A stretch of 49,715 bases of DNA, taken from the sequence record MZ501085, one strand, 5' to 3'. This DNA comes from Escherichia phage JohannLBurckhardt. Positions 15,537 to 49,675 of this stretch are shown here, in pieces (position 1 is the stretch's first letter; each line of letters begins with the position of its first letter). The notes beneath the pieces are model-generated. The model had not been told where the DNA came from and ran no database searches. It saw nothing but the letters and a program-made list of their open reading frames with translations. The translations under genes were made by a program, and so were the position numbers.

Positions 15537-16135
15537 TGCAGACACTAAAGAGAATTAAGCTTTCTGGCTCGCTGGGGCGGCGTTTCGGCGTTTTTCATGA
15601 GTTAGCCGTTGAATCATACCCCGAAGCGATTCGTGCGCTCTCCGTTGCGCTGGAGGGCTTTAAAGACTATATGCAAAGTGAAGTTGGATCGCGTATGCAC
15701 TACGCTGTTTTTGTTGACGGAAAAAATGTAGGGCAGTATGACGAAAAGGCGTGGAAGTGCGGCAAGGAAATCAGAATCATCCCGATCCCGTCCGGCTCAA
15801 AATCTGGTGGATTGTTCCAGGTTGTTTTAGGAGCAGCAATTATGGCTACGGCGTTCTTTACTGGCGGTGCATCGCTTGCCGCAATGGGCGCTCTCGCTTC
15901 CTCAGCGTTCATGATGGGCGGCGCGATGGTTTTGGGCGGTGTTATGCAGATGATATCACCACAGCGCGGCGGAATTCAGATGGAAGTAAAGAGCACGGAA
16001 AATAAGCCGTCCTACGCGTTCGGCGGTGCTGTAAACACAACAGCAGCAGGTTATCCGCTACCGCTGCCATATGGCTATCGAACGGTTGGCGGCGCTATCT
16101 GGAGTTCAGGCAGCTACGCAGAGGACAAAGTATAA
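15536..16135 (+). CDS. tail assembly protein (lambda gpI-like)
   Basis: 199 aa; Gly/Ala-rich hydrophobic C-terminal region; position between K-like and J-like genes. Confidence 0.65.
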   Translation: MQTLKRIKLSGSLGRRFGVFHELAVESYPEAIRALSVALEGFKDYMQSEVGSRMHYAVFVDGKNVGQYDEKAWKCGKEIRIIPIPSGSKSGGLFQVVLGAAIMATAFFTGGASLAAMGALASSAFMMGGAMVLGGVMQMISPQRGGIQMEVKSTENKPSYAFGGAVNTTAAGYPLPLPYGYRTVGGAIWSSGSYAEDKV

Positions 16136-16140
16136 ATCAA

Positions 16141-16162
16141 GCCCCGCATTGCGGGGTTTTTT
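16141..16162 (+). terminator. rho-independent terminator
   Basis: CCCCGC-att-GCGGGG followed by 6 T. Confidence 0.85.
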
Positions 16163-16177
16163 ATTGGTTGCTATAAT
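16149..16177 (+). promoter_or_regulatory. sigma70-like promoter with extended -10 (TGcTATAAT) overlapping the terminator
   Basis: TTGCGG - 17 nt - TATAAT preceded by TG; leader contains a degenerate palindrome copy AGCAC-aaat-TGTTA at about 16190-16204. Confidence 0.5.
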
Positions 16178-20858: not shown

Positions 20859-21158
20859 CTAATTAAATTTATAAACTTCAATATCCATAACAACATCGCT
20901 AAACGGGTTGCTGGTTGGTAGATATATCACATCAACCGCACCGTCCCGCGTAACGCACGCGTAAGAGCTTCCTATGTAGGCGTTAGACCACTTTATAGCG
21001 GCAAACGAGTTGTAGCCGTTTATACCCCCAACGGCAAACGAAACGATCGCGGTTGTTCGAGGGAATACTATTTGCTGGCGATGCACAAAACGAGTGCTGA
21101 AGTCGCCCAGGTCAACAATCAGATTCCCCGCCCCATCCCACGCTTGAAGACCAGACAT
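20859..21158 (-). CDS. hypothetical protein
   Basis: 99 aa; RBS GAGGTGG; first gene of - strand operon transcribed from the AT-rich region. Confidence 0.6.
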   Translation of the reverse strand: MSGLQAWDGAGNLIVDLGDFSTRFVHRQQIVFPRTTAIVSFAVGGINGYNSFAAIKWSNAYIGSSYACVTRDGAVDVIYLPTSNPFSDVVMDIEVYKFN

Positions 21159-21194
21159 AATGCCACCTCACTAGTTTGCTTGTTAAGTGCATTT

Positions 21195-21223
21195 AATATA
21201 CAGGCGTGGCGTAATCATTTCAA
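21195..21223 (-). promoter_or_regulatory. sigma70-like promoter for - strand cluster
   Basis: On - strand TTGAAA - 17 nt - TATATT about 37 nt upstream of ATG 21158. Confidence 0.45.
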
Positions 21224-21343
21224 TAACAAGTGAGAATCCTTGCCGTTATTGTTTTTCTTGTTTCTCGGTGTTCTCTATTGCACCCACCGCAGAATCGCAC
21301 AACGTTTCAGAACAGAAAAAACAAATAAATCATCTATAATATA

Positions 21344-21384
21344 TAATAAAATCAATAGTTTAGTTTATATGTATTTGTATATTG
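21344..21384 (+). repeat. AT-rich conserved block, copy 1 (direct repeat with 40699..40737)
   Basis: TAATAAAATCAATAGTTTA identical 19-mer plus similar flanks in both AT-rich intergenic regions. Confidence 0.7.
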
Positions 21385-21606
21385 TTATTTATTGTTTCCA
21401 CTGTTTCAGTGTTAATTGATGCACTGGCTTGCTTTCGTCTGGATATCTCTATTAGCCATTTGATGTGTGTATTTATATAAACCCCACCGCAAATCCGCGA
21501 ACAATGAAACAAAAAATAACGACGTTTAAAATCATGCACTTAATCGCTGATTTTGTTATCTTGGTTGAAAGATGCGTTTCGAGAACAGAAAAAACAATTG
21601 ATGGTA

Positions 21607-21634
21607 TTGACTAAACGCCACAAATGGCTACAAT
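21607..21634 (+). promoter_or_regulatory. sigma70-like promoter for recombination module
   Basis: TTGACT - 16 nt - TACAAT, about 30 nt upstream of ATG 21665. Confidence 0.55.
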
Positions 21635-21664
21635 GCACGTATACCAACACACAGGAGCGAAAGA

Positions 21665-22764: not shown

Positions 22765-23094
22765 ATGCCTCCATCAAGTCAACAAAGAGAGGATATCAAA
22801 ATGGAAAACATCACCAATGAAGAAATGATTAGCGCGGTATGTGAAGCTCATATGCGTATGTTTGTACACCGCGTCACTTTCGCAATGAAGGACTTTGTTA
22901 AGCCTCTTAATCCGGCAGACGGCGAAGAAGAAATGAAATACATCCGTGATGTGATGGAGGCGGTTGACAACGTTGTGGCGACTGCGCTGATGGTCAAAGA
23001 GGATCCAGAAGCAATCAAGATGATGAAGGAATCCACCGACAAGCTGATCAATCAGCTTATCGAGATCCATAACGGCGGCGAAGTTAAGCACTAA
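22765..23094 (+). CDS. hypothetical protein
   Basis: 109 aa; RBS GGAGG 7 nt upstream (alternative start 22801). Confidence 0.5.
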   Translation: MPPSSQQREDIKMENITNEEMISAVCEAHMRMFVHRVTFAMKDFVKPLNPADGEEEMKYIRDVMEAVDNVVATALMVKEDPEAIKMMKESTDKLINQLIEIHNGGEVKH

Positions 23095-23830: not shown

Positions 23831-24253
23831 ATGCACATTATCACCGGAGAAATTCGAAAAGAGCCTCGAATCAAGCAGACTCAAAACGGCACTCTATACG
23901 TTGTTGAGTTATCAGAGCGCTATAAAGATCGAGAAGGTAACGCTCAATACACGAACTACACGTTTTTCTTTAATGCTCGCGCCGGATCTGAGGGAATGAA
24001 AAACTGGTATGATGAAGCGTTCCAGGTTGGCAAGGTAATCTCTGTTTCTTGCGAAACGCTAAAGGCTGAATTGCGAGAGTATGAGGGCAAGACGTATGTC
24101 ACCATGCAAGCGGCAGACTTCCCGAAACTGCTGTTTAGCCAGCGCGGAGGCGCAGCGCCACAACAGCAAAGCAAACCGCGACAGCAAGCGCAGAGCCAAC
24201 CACGGCAGAGCCAAGAGCCGCCGATTGACTTTGACGACGATATCCCATTCTAA
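23831..24253 (+). CDS. ssb: single-stranded DNA-binding protein
   Basis: 140 aa; Gln/Pro-rich linker and acidic C-terminal tail DFDDDIPF characteristic of SSB. Confidence 0.85.
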   Translation: MHIITGEIRKEPRIKQTQNGTLYVVELSERYKDREGNAQYTNYTFFFNARAGSEGMKNWYDEAFQVGKVISVSCETLKAELREYEGKTYVTMQAADFPKLLFSQRGGAAPQQQSKPRQQAQSQPRQSQEPPIDFDDDIPF

Positions 24254-24283
24254 AAAGAAACCCCGCGATTGCGGGGTTTTTTG
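24252..24283. terminator. bidirectional rho-independent terminator
   Basis: A tract, CCCCGC-gatt-GCGGGG, T tract; shared by ssb (+) and the tail fibre gene (-). Confidence 0.85.
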
Positions 24284-26767
24284 TTACTTCTCAATAAGTT
24301 TTGAAATCATAGCTTTCAACTCCTCAACCTCAGCTTTAAGGTTGTCAATCTCCTCCTGCTGTTTTTCCACGATTCCTCCGATGTAGCGAGTCGCAAGCGC
24401 CGTGTCAATCATGATAACGTTGTTATCAAGCCCAAGAGTATCATCCTTGTAATCAATGATAACTGGCTTGTCTCCTTCCTTGCCATCATTATTGTCAATA
24501 ACCGGAGCGCCTGGAATGATTCGCACATATTCAGGATCGATCTCGTACAGGTCTTGCGCAATAACTCCACGACGCACGCGATTGTACTTATCAGATTTGT
24601 ACACAAACGTTGACGGCTTGAACTGCATGATGTTGTCAAATGACGCCTTACCATCATCATATTCAATATCCTTTTTCAAATCCCTGTCAGACGTTGCCAC
24701 GCGCTGAAACTCAAAGTTACCACCCCAAACGCTGTTAGTATCCCAGCATGTTATTTGGCCTGAAACGTGGAACTCAAATCCACGATGCCATGATTCATCA
24801 CCTTGCATATGGATAGCTGCGCGAGGCCATGAACTAGTGCCGCCAGATATTGCTCCAAGAGAGTAGCGCAAACGGTATCCACCAGAGCTGTAACTGCCCC
24901 CAGCAACAACCGGAGAATAGCCAGCATCATTTCCACCTACTGAGTCGGCGTAGAATGGCGCACCCATGTACTCACCATCCACAGACCAGGCGCCTTGTAT
25001 GCACTGACCTTTGAATCCGCGTTGGGCTGTGATGTGACCACCATAAGAGTTGTTGAAATCAAAATACTTCCAATCCGTACCACTATTGTTAACACCAAGT
25101 CTAACCGTTGAGATATCCGTTCCAGATCCGCGAATTGCTCCAAACTGCCAGTAACCGTTATACCAGTTACCTTGCAGGAGGTTAATCCACGAACCCGCGT
25201 TACCATCTCCAGGCACGTTTTGCAGCATAATGTTTTTATTGCCGCCGTCAGTTGTTATAACCCCAACAGCCTTACCTTGCGCAGCCCAAACATCACCGTT
25301 AGATCTCAGCAGACCAGCGCGAGCAGTGCCAGCAACGAGAATCTCCTGAAGTCCAGACATAGAACCATCTTCATTTATCTGAACATAGTTGTTTTTGCCA
25401 TTTCCAGACGTGTGGATTGTTGTCTTGCAGATCCCGCCCTGAACCTCACTATAAATCCTTGATTGACTAACGCGCGCACCGGAGGAATTTAGGTTGTCAC
25501 TAATTAATATCCCGCCGTTTGCGCCGTTCAATTGCTTACTAGTGATTTGAGCGAATGTTACAGCCTGACGTTCCCCAAGACCGAAGTTATCACGAGCGCC
25601 AGCAACATCCGTTGCACCAGTTCCACCTGATGAAATAGGGATTGGAACAGTTTGCCCGTCTTTAGTCTGCCACACGAAAAGACCGTCATTACCCAAAACC
25701 AAGCGGTGCGACAAATCAGGCGATGAAAGCAAGCTATTGCCATATGCGCTGTCTATCCACCCCAAACCCAAGTTATTAACAGCAGAGCGGCGATCAGCTA
25801 CGTCTGAAAGGTTAGCGTCCTTTCGCATTAGGTTAGTAGCGTCAAGCTGATCAGCCAAATCCGCTGCGCGTTCTGCATCGCTTTTTGCGCTTGCTGCTGA
25901 CTGCGCTGCTGCGTCTTTGCTTGCGTTCGCTTCATTTCTTGCGTTAGTTGAGATAGCCGCCGCCGCCTGAGACTCATTTTTTGATGCGTCAGAAGCCGCT
26001 GCGCTTGCCGCCGCGTTTATCTCGCTTTGTTTCGACGCGCTCTCACTTGCCGCCGCCGCGCTAGCTGATGCGCTTGCGCTCTTGCTATGCTCGAATGCAT
26101 TTCGCTCAGATTGCAGGGTGTTTGCTTCGCTTGCTGCTGCCGCATTCTTTGACGCCAGAGCCGCCTGATCGTGCGCTGCTGCTGAGTTTGCGCTGTTTTC
26201 TGCCGCCTCTCTGTAAGCGTTGGCGTTACTCTCGCTAACGTGAGCCGCTTGTGCGCTTTGACCTGCTGCGCTCTCGCTTGCTGCTGCTGCGCCAGCCGAT
26301 GCGCTTGCGCTCTGGCTATGCGCGAATGCGTTTTTTTCGGACTGCAAAGCATTTGCAGCGCTACCCGCTGCCGCTGCTGCGTTATCTTTCACTCCAGCGT
26401 CGATTGCCTCTAGCTTTTCCCAATCGAAATCTTTCAGGAATTCAATGAATCCCTCGATCATGCTTTCCTTGCCCTGGTAATAGCGCAGGGTTTCAGCTAC
26501 ATCCTGAGCCAAACCGTCAACAGTGATTGAGTCATGCAGCAGGATCACATAGTCGACCTGAGGAACGACAGCGCCGCCAGTTGAGGTGGCACGCAGTGAG
26601 GTATCATTTATGATCTCGCTAATTGTTGCATACGCAACCGGATTGGTTGCAAACACAATGGTTGCGCCTGGTCGAATAAGCGTCAACGCCGTTTTCCAGT
26701 TTGTGCCGTATCCGGTGATATATCCGTCAGCGTCCATTGACGCTTGACCCTTGCGGTAAATAGCCAT
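24284..26767 (-). CDS. L-shaped tail fibre protein with C-terminal intramolecular chaperone (peptidase S74-like) domain
   Basis: 827 aa; Ala/Ser-rich coiled region with internal duplication; C-terminal ...TSDRDLKKDIEYDDGKASFDNIMQFKP... resembles the autoproteolytic chaperone domain of T5 pb1 / endosialidase fibres. Confidence 0.8.
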   Translation of the reverse strand: MAIYRKGQASMDADGYITGYGTNWKTALTLIRPGATIVFATNPVAYATISEIINDTSLRATSTGGAVVPQVDYVILLHDSITVDGLAQDVAETLRYYQGKESMIEGFIEFLKDFDWEKLEAIDAGVKDNAAAAAGSAANALQSEKNAFAHSQSASASAGAAAASESAAGQSAQAAHVSESNANAYREAAENSANSAAAHDQAALASKNAAAASEANTLQSERNAFEHSKSASASASAAAASESASKQSEINAAASAAASDASKNESQAAAAISTNARNEANASKDAAAQSAASAKSDAERAADLADQLDATNLMRKDANLSDVADRRSAVNNLGLGWIDSAYGNSLLSSPDLSHRLVLGNDGLFVWQTKDGQTVPIPISSGGTGATDVAGARDNFGLGERQAVTFAQITSKQLNGANGGILISDNLNSSGARVSQSRIYSEVQGGICKTTIHTSGNGKNNYVQINEDGSMSGLQEILVAGTARAGLLRSNGDVWAAQGKAVGVITTDGGNKNIMLQNVPGDGNAGSWINLLQGNWYNGYWQFGAIRGSGTDISTVRLGVNNSGTDWKYFDFNNSYGGHITAQRGFKGQCIQGAWSVDGEYMGAPFYADSVGGNDAGYSPVVAGGSYSSGGYRLRYSLGAISGGTSSWPRAAIHMQGDESWHRGFEFHVSGQITCWDTNSVWGGNFEFQRVATSDRDLKKDIEYDDGKASFDNIMQFKPSTFVYKSDKYNRVRRGVIAQDLYEIDPEYVRIIPGAPVIDNNDGKEGDKPVIIDYKDDTLGLDNNVIMIDTALATRYIGGIVEKQQEEIDNLKAEVEELKAMISKLIEK

Positions 26768-26871: not shown

Positions 26872-27828
26872 TTACCGTGTCGGGAGTAAGGTTTCCGGCT
26901 TGTAAAGCTTTCGCTCTATCCCTTGCCGGAAATTATCGTTAATAGGAAGCATCACGTCAAGCCCTCTCTCCTCTGCGGCAATTATCACGTCCTGATCGGT
27001 TGACTTACACACCACGCGCATTTTTCGATCTCCTTTATATCGGTGCGCAACAATCTCAACGTTATAACTTGAGAAGCAAGCCCACACCTCTTGACCCGTA
27101 GACAGGTGAATGTGTTGCGCGTCCACCCAATCAACACACAGATAGATCGTGTTGTCAGTTTTACCAGTCACCGCAACGGAGCCTCGCGTATAGTCCTTTG
27201 CATAAAAAACACTCTCCCCTAACTCGTCAATCATGAGGATGTTACACATTTCATCATCAAGACCATCGTCATGCACCAGGTAGCACGGAATAGCATGAAT
27301 AAGCGAATCTCCGCCATTCTCCAGCGTTTTCACGCCTACGGAGTACATTTCATCATCTGGTGGCGCGATACCCTCAAAAACGCTTAGATGGGTTTTAATC
27401 ACGCCTTTCGTTCTCTCCATTACTGCAACGCAGTTTTCATGAGGGGCTTGGGATCCGAAAGAGTAACCTGACGCGCGGGAGGCTCGCTTGTTCGCCTTAA
27501 CTATATACTCCTGAGGAACCTTTCCGAGAAAGCGCCCTAAAATGTTGATGCACTCGCTATATGGTTCGCCAGTGAGCTTCATTAGCCAGCCAATGCCGCT
27601 ATCGCTCCCGCAACCGTTGCACACTGCGCCGCCGTCGCCGTCAGTGCTAAGTTTGTCAGTCCAACGGAATCGGTCTTTACCTCCGCAATGGGGGCAGGGC
27701 TGGTGTTTTTTGTTGAAAACGTCATTGCTCAATCCGCAAAGGCTTTGCAACGCATCGCGCCACATCCCTTTCATGTACGGCAAAACGTCCTCTTTCTGAA
27801 ACATCATGTTTGGGTGTACTTCTTGCAT
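26872..27828 (-). CDS. DNA primase-like protein (zinc-ribbon N-terminus)
   Basis: 318 aa from ATG 27828 (RBS GGAG); CPHCGG...CNGCG zinc-binding motif; adjacent to helicase. Confidence 0.55.
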   Translation of the reverse strand: MQEVHPNMMFQKEDVLPYMKGMWRDALQSLCGLSNDVFNKKHQPCPHCGGKDRFRWTDKLSTDGDGGAVCNGCGSDSGIGWLMKLTGEPYSECINILGRFLGKVPQEYIVKANKRASRASGYSFGSQAPHENCVAVMERTKGVIKTHLSVFEGIAPPDDEMYSVGVKTLENGGDSLIHAIPCYLVHDDGLDDEMCNILMIDELGESVFYAKDYTRGSVAVTGKTDNTIYLCVDWVDAQHIHLSTGQEVWACFSSYNVEIVAHRYKGDRKMRVVCKSTDQDVIIAAEERGLDVMLPINDNFRQGIERKLYKPETLLPTR

Positions 27829-27841
27829 GATTCGCTCCAAT

Positions 27842-27886: not shown

Positions 27887-28327
27887 TTAGCTATTTGTGC
27901 TGTTTATGAAGTCCGACTCTTTCACCACGCGAAGCATTTCGTATCGGTCGCATTTCGTCGTTAACGCCTTGCCGTTTGAGTCGAATCGCAAATCTGGACG
28001 GCAGAATGAAGAACGATAGCCCTTGCAGCCGTTTCGCTTATAGTCGGCGTGAACCTTTTCGGCTCCAGAAACGGAAATCATTCCGCGCTTGCGCCACTGC
28101 TGTATAACCTGGTGAGTAACCTTTAAGCGCCTTGTCATTTCTGCCTGAGATCCGTAATATTCGCAAACGGCATCCAGGCGAGCACGCAATCCGGCTTTGA
28201 CTTCATCCTTTAGAACGTAGTAGCCTGTTTTGCGCTTGCGCTTTTTCTTGTCTTTACCGCGCTTTACACCGTTGTTGCCATTGATTGTGCGCTTGTCAAT
28301 TTCGCCAGTTGATGCAGCAATTTTCAT
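27887..28327 (-). CDS. HTH DNA-binding protein (Cro/YdaS-like), putative transcriptional regulator
   Basis: 146 aa from ATG 28327 (RBS GGAGGT); basic N-terminus, GSQAEMTRRLKVTHQVIQQWRKRG HTH-like segment. Confidence 0.5.
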   Translation of the reverse strand: MKIAASTGEIDKRTINGNNGVKRGKDKKKRKRKTGYYVLKDEVKAGLRARLDAVCEYYGSQAEMTRRLKVTHQVIQQWRKRGMISVSGAEKVHADYKRNGCKGYRSSFCRPDLRFDSNGKALTTKCDRYEMLRVVKESDFINSTNS

Positions 28328-28340
28328 ATTAAACCTCCGA

Positions 28341-28383
28341 TAGCACTTTTTGCTAAAAACACTCAAAACGTATGCGCTATTAT
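28341..28383 (+). promoter_or_regulatory. palindrome-type promoter element (site c)
   Basis: TAGCA-ctttt-TGCTA, 22 nt, TATTAT; 33 nt upstream of helicase ATG; divergent from HTH gene. Confidence 0.6.
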
Positions 28384-28415
28384 ACATTCAATCGGTTAAC
28401 GAATAAAGGTTAAAA

Positions 28416-30925: not shown

Positions 30926-31672
30926 ATGGCTAAAGACATTCTTGATAACTCAACAATCGACGGTATCGAGCAGGTTGATGAAATGGACTTTCACGAATTG
31001 CAGCACGGCAAGTATTCAGACATAGCCCTGCGCTCAGGCGGTCATTACCAGGCCGTGAAACCTTGCCAGTATTACAAGGTTACAGGCAACCGTTACGCCG
31101 GAAGCAACACTCCAGATGTTGTCCGTGACCTTTGGGCTACTCCGCGCGATGTTGTCGCGTATATGGAAAGCCGCTACGGTAAATATGATCTTGACGCTGC
31201 GGCTAGCGAGGACAATAAAGTCTGTGAAAAATTCTACAGCAAAGAAACAAACTGCTTAAAGCGTTGGTGGGGTAGCAAGAAGCACGTATGGCTGAATCCT
31301 CCATATTCGAATCCAGATCCGTTTGTGCTAAAGGCCATTGAGCAAATGGAGCACGACAATCAGATCGACATATTGCTTCCAGCCGACAACTCAACGGCAT
31401 GGTTTAGCGACGCACAAAAGCACGCTGCTGAAATTATCTGGATCACTGGCGAGACCTGGAAAGATGAAGATGGGCGCGAGTATTCACGAACCGGACGATT
31501 AGCGTTTATTTCCGGTCTGACAGGTGAACCAGTTAGCGGTAACAACAAGGGCAGCGTAATTTTTGTTATGCGCAAACTGAAAGAGGGTGAGCAGCAACAA
31601 ACGCACTACGTGAAAATTAGCGAAATCTGCCCGTCCGTAAAAAACAAGCGAGCAAAAGCAAGGAGTTTTTAA
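30926..31672 (+). CDS. dam: DNA N6-adenine methyltransferase (Dam-like)
   Basis: 248 aa; catalytic NPPY motif (LNPPYS). Confidence 0.8.
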   Translation: MAKDILDNSTIDGIEQVDEMDFHELQHGKYSDIALRSGGHYQAVKPCQYYKVTGNRYAGSNTPDVVRDLWATPRDVVAYMESRYGKYDLDAAASEDNKVCEKFYSKETNCLKRWWGSKKHVWLNPPYSNPDPFVLKAIEQMEHDNQIDILLPADNSTAWFSDAQKHAAEIIWITGETWKDEDGREYSRTGRLAFISGLTGEPVSGNNKGSVIFVMRKLKEGEQQQTHYVKISEICPSVKNKRAKARSF

Positions 31673-35689: not shown

Positions 35690-37267
35690 TCACCCCATTA
35701 AAGCAGGATTCACAAACACGCGCCCATTCGTGAGGCATACGTAATTAAGATCTTCAAGGATTGGAAGCAAGTGATCCTCAATTCGCTTCATCACACCAGC
35801 CTGACCCAGGAACGGACGAACCTTGCGCACGGATTCGTAAATCGCCCGTGCAGTGATAGCGCCCTTATTGGCTTTTCCGAGCCTTGTTATCGTGTCGATA
35901 ATCTTGATCAACTCCGCATCCTGACCAGCATGACCGGAAGCATTTGCAGCGCTGATGTAGGTCTTGCTCAACTCCTGGAACATCAAGAGCGCCTCCTGCA
36001 TCGTCTCAACGTCAATCTCTCGTGACTTTGTGGCGGTTCCGTTAACATCCTGCCAGTTTCGGATCGTGTGAATAACGGATGCCAGGCGAATGACTTGTTT
36101 ATCCATTTTACCCAATGCGCCGCGTAGCATGGTGTGAGAATATTCTCCTCCGTCTGCAAGCTTTGGCTCCATTTCCTGGCGTGCAATGTTGAGCACCCGC
36201 ATAGCGGAGCGGCTAACCTTCAATGAAACGGATTGCTCCGTCATGATATTGTGGATCAGCTTGTAATAGTCCGCTTTAAGACCTGCATCAACTGGCGTGT
36301 AGGTTGTGTCTCCTTTGTCGTCAACAAACTTACGGCGGCCTAAGAATGATTCCTCTCGCACAAGCAAGAAACGTTCAGAAACACCGATACCACGAGCACC
36401 AGCCTCCATAATGCCGCTGATTGTTTCGTCCTGCGCAATCACAGCCATGCAACCTAGAGCCGTAAAGCTCATGTTGTTTTCTGCATTTGCACGGGCGATG
36501 GAAACGTGACCGCTATCCCAAGCCTTTAGCACCAATTCGCTGTTAGTCTTGCGCTCGCTATTGGCGTATGTCAGTCCGAGCAGTGAGTTGATACTTGTTG
36601 CCTCGTCCGAGATAACAGCAAAGTTACCCTGGCGAAAGTTGATTTTAGCCAAACCCTCTGGAGTGGTATCTGAAACAGGAAACACAACGTCGCACAGTTT
36701 AGCCAGCTTTTCCTCGTACTCCTCTTTCTCCTCGTAAAGCGCAGCGTACTCAGTGCCGGAGCGCTCGCTCTTTAATTCCTTTGCGATCCCGTTGAGTTTC
36801 GCCTGAATCTTTTTGCGCTCTTTCTTGCGTTGCTCGTTGATTCGCTCAACCTCTGCAACAATCGGAGCAATCGCCATTGAGTTGATCGCAGATTTACCAG
36901 TAGACGGCGGCTGGCTTGTAACAACGTATAGCGCCGTTGGCTGATCGGTTCCGTGGTATTCAACGGAGAATCTCCCGAGCATCGCGGCAGACACGCAGCC
37001 TACAAAGTGCATATAGGCAGATGAAACAGGGAATTGCACAGACTCCGCCAGGCTGCGAGACAACTTGCCTACAACGTCGCAATCGTTGCCGAGGGAAATA
37101 ACAGGGTATTTGTCGTTTCCGCTGTTAATGTCCTTCACGTCACCCCAAAAACCAGACGAGCGAGAGTATCCGTTTGCCTGGATTGCAACCTTAACGGCGC
37201 TCAAGCCTTGAGCCTCAGCCGTTGAAATGATTTGTTGTGGTGTCAGCGTGGATTGTTCAAAAAACAT
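35690..37267 (-). CDS. P-loop NTPase (putative replication/helicase-type protein)
   Basis: 525 aa; Walker A SQPPSTGKSA and Walker B-like VISDEAT; RBS AAGGAG; downstream of motif site n. Confidence 0.5.
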   Translation of the reverse strand: MFFEQSTLTPQQIISTAEAQGLSAVKVAIQANGYSRSSGFWGDVKDINSGNDKYPVISLGNDCDVVGKLSRSLAESVQFPVSSAYMHFVGCVSAAMLGRFSVEYHGTDQPTALYVVTSQPPSTGKSAINSMAIAPIVAEVERINEQRKKERKKIQAKLNGIAKELKSERSGTEYAALYEEKEEYEEKLAKLCDVVFPVSDTTPEGLAKINFRQGNFAVISDEATSINSLLGLTYANSERKTNSELVLKAWDSGHVSIARANAENNMSFTALGCMAVIAQDETISGIMEAGARGIGVSERFLLVREESFLGRRKFVDDKGDTTYTPVDAGLKADYYKLIHNIMTEQSVSLKVSRSAMRVLNIARQEMEPKLADGGEYSHTMLRGALGKMDKQVIRLASVIHTIRNWQDVNGTATKSREIDVETMQEALLMFQELSKTYISAANASGHAGQDAELIKIIDTITRLGKANKGAITARAIYESVRKVRPFLGQAGVMKRIEDHLLPILEDLNYVCLTNGRVFVNPALMG

Positions 37268-40409: not shown

Positions 40410-40424
40410 TTTAATCGGTAGTCA

Positions 40425-40525
40425 GTGATTTTGATGATTGCTTGACCACTTTTGCAATGATGTTTTTGATGTCCGTCAACTTTTGTGTGATTGTGATGAT
40501 TGTTGATGTTTTTTGATGTGATTTG
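40425..40525 (+). repeat. degenerate short tandem repeats (TGATG / TTTTGATG units)
   Basis: gattttgatgattg...caatgatgtttttgatg...gattgtgatgattgttgatgttttttgatgtgatttgaatg in AT-rich noncoding region. Confidence 0.5.
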
Positions 40526-40698
40526 AATGTGGGAATCAGCATGGCCTGGCGGTGTCGTTTTTGCGCTCTCGAAAACTCCGCCCTGTTATCTTCTGTTTGC
40601 ACTCGTTTCCTCTTGTTACCGAAAGTACGGTGGCGTAGTTTGTTCGTGTTTTTCGCGTAGCAGAAACAAAAAAAACTTTTAATTACCCTATAAACAAC

Positions 40699-40737
40699 TA
40701 ATAAAATCAATAGTTTATTTATATATATTATATTTGT
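40699..40737 (+). repeat. AT-rich conserved block, copy 2 (direct repeat with 21344..21384)
   Basis: TAATAAAATCAATAGTTTA identical 19-mer plus similar flanks. Confidence 0.7.
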
Positions 40738-40995
40738 TTTCACTACGTTATACTTGTTCCATATGGTATGGGGTGGTTATGGGATTTTATTATTGGTGGT
40801 ATTGGTTAATTTATAGGCATGTTCCGCTCAGGATGTGTGCGATTCATCATTTCGTTGTGGTTGCTTTGGGTGACATATACATATTTATTATGTCCTCCGA
40901 AAAAACTGTAACGGCTGTAACATGCAAAAAACAGAATTTATAATCATAAAAATCAACAACTTGCGATAAATTTTGTTTTTCGGCTCAAAAAAAAC

Positions 40996-41024
40996 TTGTG
41001 GAAACCGATTGTAACATGCATAAT
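40996..41024 (+). promoter_or_regulatory. candidate sigma70-like promoter for right-hand early operon
   Basis: TTGTGG - 17 nt - CATAAT; leader CACGAAACGAAC then GGAGG and ATG 41057. Confidence 0.4.
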
Positions 41025-41056
41025 GCACCACGAAACGAACAAGCGGAGGTAAAACT

Positions 41057-41482
41057 ATGTCAGATCAATCATTTGGCGATCAGTTGCGTGCAGCGGCGAG
41101 AATGTTGGCGAGTGGTGAGCGTGATGAGATTATCATGACCGACTACCAGTTACAGCAAGCGTCCGGCAGGGAGAAAATCAACCCAAGCCATATCCGTACA
41201 ACTATGGCGCGAGAGGTTCGCACCCTGGGAGCTATCAGCGTGAAGCGCATCACGGATCCGATTGGGTACGTTTGCACATTCAACCCTGACCCAAAAAAGC
41301 GAGCGATTGCCAGCGACGAGCTACCAGCAATCAAGGCGCGTGCGACTAACAAAGCACTGAAAGCGATTGCAGACGTGATGCCAAACCTCACAGACCTGGA
41401 GGGCGAGCAGTTGCAGGGTGCTATCATTGCGGTGCAGCGCTACCAGGATTTAATCAAGAAGCAAATCAACGAGGAGGTTTAA
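41057..41482 (+). CDS. hypothetical protein
   Basis: 141 aa; RBS GGAGG; first gene after AT-rich region. Confidence 0.55.
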   Translation: MSDQSFGDQLRAAARMLASGERDEIIMTDYQLQQASGREKINPSHIRTTMAREVRTLGAISVKRITDPIGYVCTFNPDPKKRAIASDELPAIKARATNKALKAIADVMPNLTDLEGEQLQGAIIAVQRYQDLIKKQINEEV

Positions 41483-49415: not shown

Positions 49416-49645
49416 TTTTAGGTTTTGTAATTGGATTCATTGCCGCTATCGCTATGGTTTTGGTTGTTGGTGGAATTGCGCAGAAATACGCAATCAAAAA
49501 AGGCTGGTACGCCTCCGCGATCTGGATTGAAAAAGAGAAGTGCTGGAAAGTGCGCGGCCGATTCCTCAGTGTGGCATCAAAGATTCACTCTGGAATCCTT
49601 GAAGAATACCGCTCAGGGCGGAAAACCGTCAAATACGTAGAATAA
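49412..49645 (+). CDS. small membrane protein
   Basis: 77 aa; N-terminal TM helix; RBS AAGGAG; last gene before terS. Confidence 0.5.
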   Translation: MILGFVIGFIAAIAMVLVVGGIAQKYAIKKGWYASAIWIEKEKCWKVRGRFLSVASKIHSGILEEYRSGRKTVKYVE

Positions 49646-49649
49646 CCGA

Positions 49650-49675
49650 AGCCCCGCGTTTGCGGGGTTTTTTTG
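49650..49675 (+). terminator. rho-independent terminator
   Basis: CCCCGC-gttt-GCGGGG followed by 7 T; then TTATAAT and the SD for terS at window end. Confidence 0.85.

Follow-up and report, generated by a model that had tools for sequence, protein, structure and literature searches.

The complete genome of Escherichia phage JohannLBurckhardt (MZ501085), a T1-like siphovirus (Drexlerviridae, Tempevirinae, Henuseptimavirus), was analyzed as one window of 49,715 nt, with the small terminase gene at the start of the record. The region under study, R1, is an ORF-poor gap at 21159–21664. To its left lies a leftward cassette of three small genes for proteins of 99, 216 and 125 aa, of which the 99-aa gene (20859–21158, − strand) is the direct neighbor of R1. 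To its right, exoVIII, a small ORF and the genes for Erf and SSB follow on the + strand from 21665 onward. The interval and its flanks are 95% identical to Klebsiella phage Samwise and 93–94% identical to the Escherichia phages IsaakIselin (Bas10) and Henu7. A second divergent gap, R2, is present at 40413–41056; it separates leftward early genes, among them small ORFs, methylases and a helicase, from small early genes that point rightward. In the records of T1 and TLS, the homolog of R2 forms the left end, and pac was mapped there in both phages (PMC11447400).

For the 109-aa gene between exoVIII and Erf (22765–23094), PHROG 11265 and several public records give the label "tail length tape measure protein". 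Considering the size of the gene and its place in the recombination operon, this label looks wrongly carried over. The tail, recombination and early-right gene blocks each end in a terminator hairpin, and the three hairpins (CCCCGC..GCGGGG plus a T run; 16131–16165, 24251–24285 and 49641–49675) are nearly identical. The lateral tail fiber gene (827 aa; 24284–26767, − strand) contains a 121-nt direct repeat (26023–26143 and 26254–26374; 76% identity, 231 nt apart) and is locally G+C-rich there.

The following elements were assigned to R1:

21195–21223, − strand: predicted leftward promoter TTGAAA-17-TATATT for the 99-aa/216-aa/125-aa cassette, outside the conserved module
21250–21274, + strand: hexamer array A with TGTTTT (21250), TGTTTC (21259) and TGTTCT (21269), direct repeats with a 9–10 bp period
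21283–21298, + strand: box 1, CCCACCGCAGAATCGC, a direct repeat of box 2
21309–21324, + strand: 16-mer copy 1, AGAACAGAAAAAACAA, with two hexamers inside in AACA orientation
21324–21383: AT-rich core of 60 bp with 88% A+T, the genome maximum for windows of this size
21335–21343: conserved run TATAATATA inside the AT-rich core
21344–21362, + strand: 19-mer TAATAAAATCAATAGTTTA, with an exact match at 40699–40717
21350–21362: predicted perfect IHF core WATCAANNNNTTR, present as AATCAATAGTTTA inside the 19-mer, with an A/T tract before the core
21383–21415, + strand: hexamer array B with TGTTAT, TGTTTC, TGTTTC and TGTTAA, direct repeats with an 8–10 bp period
21483–21498, + strand: box 2, CCCACCGCAAATCCGC
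21498–21521, + strand: hexamer array C in inverted orientation, CGAACAATGAAACAAAAAATAACG
21530–21542, + strand: predicted promoter-proximal IHF-type site AATCATGCACTTA, with one core mismatch in JohannLBurckhardt
21551–21559, + strand: lone conserved hexamer TTTTGTTAT
21582–21597, + strand: 16-mer copy 2, ending 9 nt before the −35 at the position of an UP element
21607–21634, + strand: predicted rightward sigma70 promoter TTGACT-16-TACAAT, of immediate-early type, for exoVIII/Erf/SSB

The corresponding elements of R2, and two genes referred to below, are:

40584–41024, + strand: paralogous module
40584–40620 and 40735–40760: hexamer arrays
40674–40733: AT core, 87% A+T
40951–40963: predicted proximal perfect IHF core
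40996–41024: promoter-like site TTGTGG-17-CATAAT
41057–41479: DUF7174 gene, the first gene behind the R2 promoter
35690–37267, − strand: replicative helicase of the DUF3987 (MCM-like) type with a winged helix in the C-terminal ~60–100 residues, a candidate hexamer binder

R1 had originally been predicted to be a single divergent control region, with internal repeats and an AT-rich block that recurs in a second region. All features listed in this prediction were found at their positions, and each was beyond chance. The internal repeats were borne out: AGAACAGAAAAAACAA, a 16-mer, occurs in two exact copies (21309 and 21582), and CCCACCGCA is found at 21283 and again at 21483. Both repeats are real but form part of a more extensive system of phased TGTT/AACA hexamer arrays. 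The spacings between the arrays fall into classes of about 10 bp; this pattern was dropped as evidence because the repeat period alone generates it.

Both promoter-like sites of the presumed divergent region are also present. Each scored 10/12, and they were the best two in the interval. They do not form one unit, however, as the leftward promoter travels with a mobile cassette. This promoter is invariant in four phages, with both hexamers unchanged in Skenny, Samwise and IsaakIselin. In Skenny, the cassette and the leftward promoter lie beside a terminator and a tail-fiber gene without the module, and sequence similarity extends only a few bases beyond the −35, which puts the module boundary at about 21228–21243. 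The homology breakpoints of other relatives fall at 21228–21249, and in several relatives the homology covers the interval only from about 21249 rightward. We concluded from the mobility of the cassette and from the breakpoints that 21159–21664 is a junction of two independent units, namely the cassette promoter at the left edge and a conserved module at about 21244–21634, and not one divergent control region. The three-gene cassette that adjoins this mosaic junction (21228–21249; 1241–1400 in the Skenny locus) occurs in Webervirus phages beside the tail-fiber gene.

The rightward promoter was confirmed by comparison with relatives. The pattern TTGACx-16-TAnAAT was present in 45/46 loci, and in 42 of these 45 it was located 28–34 nt ahead of the ATG. 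By this conservation the rightward promoter, predicted from sequence alone, is real. It corresponds to P51 of TLS, and P01 of TLS is the promoter at the end of R2. The authors of the TLS study predicted only three sigma70 promoters, P51 and P01 among them.

Most other transcription units of T1-like phages bear a 21-nt direct repeat, aaATAGCACnnnTTGnTAAAA, a family-wide intergenic cis element whose published description leaves the function open (PMC11447400). In JohannLBurckhardt, this repeat represents a 15-bp palindrome, TAGCA-N5-TGCTA, with about 20 sites. Examples are found at the following positions:

+ strand: 2103, 22725, 28341, 30833, 32032, 41754, 42956, 44615 and 47651
− strand: 20198, 37338, 38015, 39319, 40055 and 40409

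From the center of the repeat to the start of the downstream −10-like hexamer, often CATAATGCAC, the distance is 30 nt (29–31 nt in 16 copies). A position at about −42 corresponds to the geometry of a class II activator, and the repeat therefore probably stands in for the −35. The module of R1 resembles the 21-nt repeat in being a family-wide intergenic cis element. It differs from it in that the 21-nt repeat is palindromic and present in about 20 copies, and the rightward promoter of R1 has a true −35 and lacks the repeat. We would assign the HTH regulator encoded in the genome to the palindromic 21-nt element and not to the direct hexamers. Setting apart immediate-early promoters (true −35, beside the module) from promoters with the 21-nt element gives a first working model of the transcription program of the family; a search of the literature for transcriptomes or TSS maps of T1-like phages found none.

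The AT-rich block common to both regions had been described as 40–60 bp long. The sharing itself was corroborated by the exact 19-mer and by a local alignment score of 63 for 21308–21386 against 40661–40738, while shuffled sequences scored 22.7 ± 2.8 with a maximum of 33. The similarity is not confined to 40–60 bp; the block is the core of a module of about 400 bp. R1 (21240–21664) and R2 (40575–41056) are collinear over about 400 bp with 67% identity (z = 3.7 against shuffles in which the local composition was kept). Read from left to right, R1 and the right two-thirds of R2 contain their elements in identical order. The series begins with three to four direct TGTTnn hexamers with a 9–10 bp period, a CCGCAG/CCGGCG box, two AACA hexamers in an A-tract and the AT core. 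These are followed by two to four direct hexamers, a variable spacer, a second box and three inverted hexamers. An IHF-type site, one hexamer, an AACA/A-tract element and a sigma70-type promoter complete the module. The spacer is G+T-rich in most Tempevirinae and less so in R1 of JohannLBurckhardt. T1, TLS, haarsle and PeterMerian follow the same paired plan, and the direct orientation of the two copies holds for all five whole genomes. We concluded that the modules in R1 and R2 are ancient sister copies of a protein-docking DNA module, each located just upstream of an early promoter.

Alignment with related phages had been proposed as a check on the repeats, and it showed that R1 is kept with 68–70% identity in about 200 Drexlerviridae records. 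We looked for similarity to the module in E. coli genomes or plasmids and found none. In a set of 45 loci retrieved via the exonuclease gene, conservation is concentrated on islands formed by the TGT cores of the hexamers, TATAATATA, the AATCA..TTA of the proximal IHF-type core and the promoter, while the spacers between them vary in sequence and bear indels. At the position of array A, TTGTT/TGTT cores are conserved family-wide, with TGTAAC-GTATAT-TGTAAC as the T1 equivalent, and at the position of box 1 relatives carry a CCG(C/G)(C/A)G..AAT box. Such conserved islands with variable spacers are the footprint pattern of protein-binding DNA rather than of a gene, as judged from the aligned sequences. 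The view that R1 encodes a small RNA or a small protein is hardly probable on these grounds: automatic annotation puts short "hypothetical proteins" here in three relatives, TATAAT is conserved at 21335–21340 and a weak terminator-like hairpin is present at 21406–21427, but an Rfam search of R1 (gathering threshold and E ≤ 1) gave no match, RNA folding of both strands of R1 was no better than that of shuffles (z = −0.48 and +0.55), and among small ORFs in R1 no stop-free family spans the T1 clade and the Tempevirinae, with frames differing even among close relatives. A sigma70 promoter at the TATAAT was rejected, as no acceptable −35 was present on either strand.

Five whole genomes (JohannLBurckhardt, T1, TLS, haarsle and PeterMerian) were compared for the distribution of the motifs. 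The R1 core and the R2 core were the two most AT-rich 60-bp windows in 5/5 genomes, with 85–92% A+T. Phased dyads of the form TGTW-N5-6-TGTW were strongly concentrated in the two regions of JohannLBurckhardt, which hold 8 of the 20 genome copies (0.46 expected, p = 3.5e-8). The corresponding fractions were 12/32 in haarsle, 10/25 in PeterMerian, 6/23 in TLS and 4/23 in T1. The hexamers are short and degenerate, and R1 and R2 can differ within one genome, as with TGTTCT versus TGTTAT in haarsle. Between clades the type of hexamer switches at all positions together, from TGTAAC/TGTATA in T1 to TGTT(A/C/T)(T/C) in Tempevirinae. In T1, R1 and R2 contain 9 of the 24 TGTAAC hexamers and no TGTTAT, TGTTCT or TGTTTC. 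All six TGTWACA heptamers of the 48.8-kb T1 genome fall into R1 (four) or R2 (two).

The R1 of T1 aligned with the R2 of T1 with a score of 66, and with the R1 of any member of the Tempevirinae with a score of only 35–37. It is thus closer to its own sister copy than to the orthologous R1, which indicates concerted evolution. Both modules appear to evolve in concert with a sequence-specific binding protein encoded by the phage. The kind of element, an iteron/AT-rich/IHF site beside a promoter, is familiar, whereas the arrangement as paired modules with family-wide concerted evolution is new; we looked for a description of such paired modules in the literature and found none.

An IHF-like element had been among the predicted features, and the common block does contain an IHF core sequence, with a second site nearer to the promoter. 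Perfect matches to WATCAANNNNTTR, all predicted from sequence, are found at 21350–21362, 40705–40717 and 40951–40963. In the common 19-mer, the perfect core stands behind an A/T tract in both copies. The second IHF-type site is located 65 bp (R1, one mismatch) or 33 bp (R2, perfect) upstream of the −35. At the proximal site of R1, many relatives have perfect cores with differing N positions, and AATCA and TTA are kept throughout the family. The T1 clade has its proximal core on the opposite strand, a few bases away. The predicted sites thus show the core, the 5′ A/T tract and a consensus that is kept while the N positions vary, and we infer that IHF binds at the module sites.

We tentatively regard the distal part of the module as a replication-origin-type assembly site that is coupled to an early promoter, and this is the most likely reading of the data. 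At the promoter end, a host-sigma70 early promoter would drive exoVIII/Erf/SSB without the need for the palindromic 21-nt activator element. In the distal part, two direct, phased TGTW arrays would flank the AT-rich 60 bp with its IHF core, followed by the inverted array and the second IHF-type site. A phage-encoded hexamer-binding protein would coat the arrays, for which the MCM-like DUF3987 helicase, by its C-terminal winged helix, is a candidate. IHF would bend the DNA of the module, the AT core would melt, and the phage helicase and primase would be loaded. Transcription from the adjoining early promoter may aid opening. The R2 copy next to pac could be a second origin or a partner site.

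Several observations favor the origin reading. The layout is the classical one, with arrays on both sides of the most unwinding-prone DNA and with bending sites, and arrays A (21250–21274) and B (21383–21415) flank the core with 88% A+T as the iterons of an iteron origin do. The phage has its own helicase and primase and no known origin, and no other origin-like region stood out in the compared genomes. The origins of PICIs have the same layout (PMC6092414). The papers on TLS and SU57 describe 21-nt repeats, and an origin was looked for there and not found. Against the origin reading, the modules, at 21.3 kb and 40.7 kb, are not located beside the gene for the helicase (35690–37267) or the primase (26872–27840), so the neighborhood to an initiator or helicase gene that is expected of an iteron origin is absent. 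The origins of PICIs, SaPIs and phage lambda lie beside helicase/primase genes. The short, degenerate hexamers with their differences between R1 and R2 of one genome, the failure of protein divergence to point to a binder and the lack of DnaA boxes and GATC clusters also count against an origin, as does our search of the literature, which found no replication data on any member of the Drexlerviridae.

An origin of the oriC type was not supported: DnaA boxes or 9-mers similar to them, and GATC clusters, were not found in R1 and R2. The whole genome has 304 GATC sites, or 6.1 per kb compared to 3.9 per kb expected at equal base use, and the lack of any GATC in R1 and R2 is partly explained by their AT-richness. 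A Dam-type methylase is encoded at 30926–31669.

Candidate trans factors in the genome are the DUF3987 helicase, an SF2 helicase, a primase of the DnaG/T7 type and, encoded at 27887–28387, an HTH "transcriptional regulator". DUF3987 proteins are described as MCM-like replicative helicases with a C-terminal wHTH (PMC4889955), and one member was demonstrated to be a helicase (PMC11724360). A search with the sequence of the DUF3987 helicase against the PDB gave no match. The domain-wise divergence of the helicase, the primase, the HTH regulator and the SF2 helicase between motif classes did not single out a binder.

It is nearly as likely that R1 and R2 are purely transcriptional, as sister UAS/operator regions of the two main immediate-early promoters. 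IHF and AT-rich DNA would then boost these promoters, and a dedicated early protein of the phage would coat the TGTW arrays and thereby silence the promoters or set their timing. A sigma70-type early promoter stands at the end of each copy, and the paralogy and collinearity run through this promoter, which transcriptional control explains more simply than an origin does. The hexamers abut the −35 in both copies, with those of R1 at the position of an UP element (21582–21597). A TGTAACA at 41010 immediately precedes the −10 in R2, and the corresponding spot in T1 is occupied by a TGTWACA pair. In R1 as in R2, about 100 bp separate the proximal IHF-type site from the predicted start downstream of it. 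The gene that comes first after the R2 promoter, coding for a DUF7174 protein (41057–41479), is also conserved in its position, as it keeps the first place in TLS, haarsle and PeterMerian of the Tempevirinae and, weakly, in T1. In the AlphaFold model, the N-terminal domain of this protein has the order H-b-H-H-b-b, and two long helices follow in the C-terminal part. Structure matches were weak, and by this model the protein may have a winged-helix-like domain; a search for literature on DUF7174 found none. However, about a dozen sites over 400 bp, with an AT center 250–330 bp upstream of the promoter, exceed the needs of known operators. Moreover, the third sigma70 promoter of TLS, P57, leaves no room for a module, with 88 bp between divergent genes.

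Both functions could be combined, which we consider plausible, though at a rather low probability. Both modules would then constitute a bipartite, SV40-like control region: a single phage protein, for which the MCM-like helicase and the first early gene product come into question, would occupy the TGTW arrays of both copies. Together with IHF it would open the AT core and so initiate replication, and by its presence on the arrays it would also shut the two immediate-early promoters. If this is true, the transition from early expression to replication would be coupled in one nucleoprotein complex, and gene conversion would maintain the similarity of the two copies.

It is very unlikely that the hexamers are sites of a host winged-helix response regulator of the OmpR/PhoB type, which would tie early transcription to the state of the envelope or to phosphate. 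Classical half-sites of OmpR, which stand in 10-bp tandem arrays, include GTTACA and GAAACA, TGTWACAW is the ChIP-seq motif of OmpR in Salmonella, and the confinement of the T1 heptamers to R1 and R2 would fit such a regulator. We built an OmpR matrix from 21 distinct of 24 published sites and scanned the five genomes. The half-site matrix showed no enrichment in R1 and R2, with 1–6 matches versus about 1.2–2.5 expected. The 20-mer matrix was enriched only about 2–10-fold, as AT-rich DNA would be, and most top sites were elsewhere in the genomes. A host factor would also leave the concerted T-to-A switch between clades with the same hosts unexplained. An OmpR site array was therefore not supported, as the matrix of published sites gave no specific enrichment in the five genomes.

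A role as a packaging site had been among the predictions for R1. The pac site of phage P1 also has hexamer sets around an IHF site, and this likeness speaks for R1 as a second pac site or as a recombination site paired with the pac region. About 200 bp separate the sister copy from the pac site mapped to its left in T1 and TLS (PMC11447400). This role was not supported for R1 and has little probability left, since the pac-associated TGATG/TGATT cluster (11 in 150 nt, 40421–40570) is present only in the left part of R2 and has no counterpart in R1, and the T1 record begins inside the homologous repeats and not in the module. The cluster at 40421–40570 (+ strand) is the densest of its kind in the genome and is separate from the R1/R2 module; it is likely the region where terminase recognizes and cuts the DNA.

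The modules in R1 and R2 are the best candidates so far for the replication origin or the early-gene switch of the family. T1, one of the original T phages, belongs to this family. The analysis provides two bounded, family-wide candidate sites with a motif grammar of clade-specific hexamers, AT core and IHF cores. Drexlerviridae are common contaminants in laboratories and fermentations and are present in phage therapy collections.

Compared to known systems, the module shares features with several of them. At the origins of PICIs, two sets of iterons flank an AT-rich, presumed melting region, and the element encodes a primase and a helicase-type initiator (PMC6092414). The module is like the PICI/SaPI origins in that short direct repeats flank an AT-rich region and that a primase and a helicase-type protein are encoded in both. 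The PICI origin is single and located immediately 3′ of the rep gene, whereas the module is present in two copies, lies 14 kb or more from the helicase gene, has IHF-type sites and has an early promoter at its end.

The satellite phage P4 has two separated cis regions, ori and crr, with the same type I iteron, TGTTCACC, which is bound by the C-terminal winged-helix domain of the primase-helicase. Two separated cis regions with a common short repeat are also found here, and by motif comparison the hexamers of the TLS lineage have the form TGTTCAC/GTGAACA. The primase of T1 is annotated as similar to P4-type alpha proteins. In contrast to P4, T1-like phages have primase and helicase as separate genes, and the helicase is of the DUF3987/MCM-like type rather than P4 alpha. 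The TGTTCAC form occurs in some lineages only, with GTGAACA at 4/8 in TLS and 0 in JohannLBurckhardt. The cis regions are 19 kb apart here and 4.5 kb in P4.

The OL/OR operators of lambda consist of 17-bp palindromes for a dimeric HTH protein, three per promoter and overlapping the promoter core, and IHF sites are located upstream of pL. As in lambda, two paralogous multi-site regions are located at the main early promoters, with sites for a host bending protein predicted upstream. Unlike OL/OR, the module carries a dozen or so direct hexamers, which are spread over 400 bp around an extremely AT-rich core.
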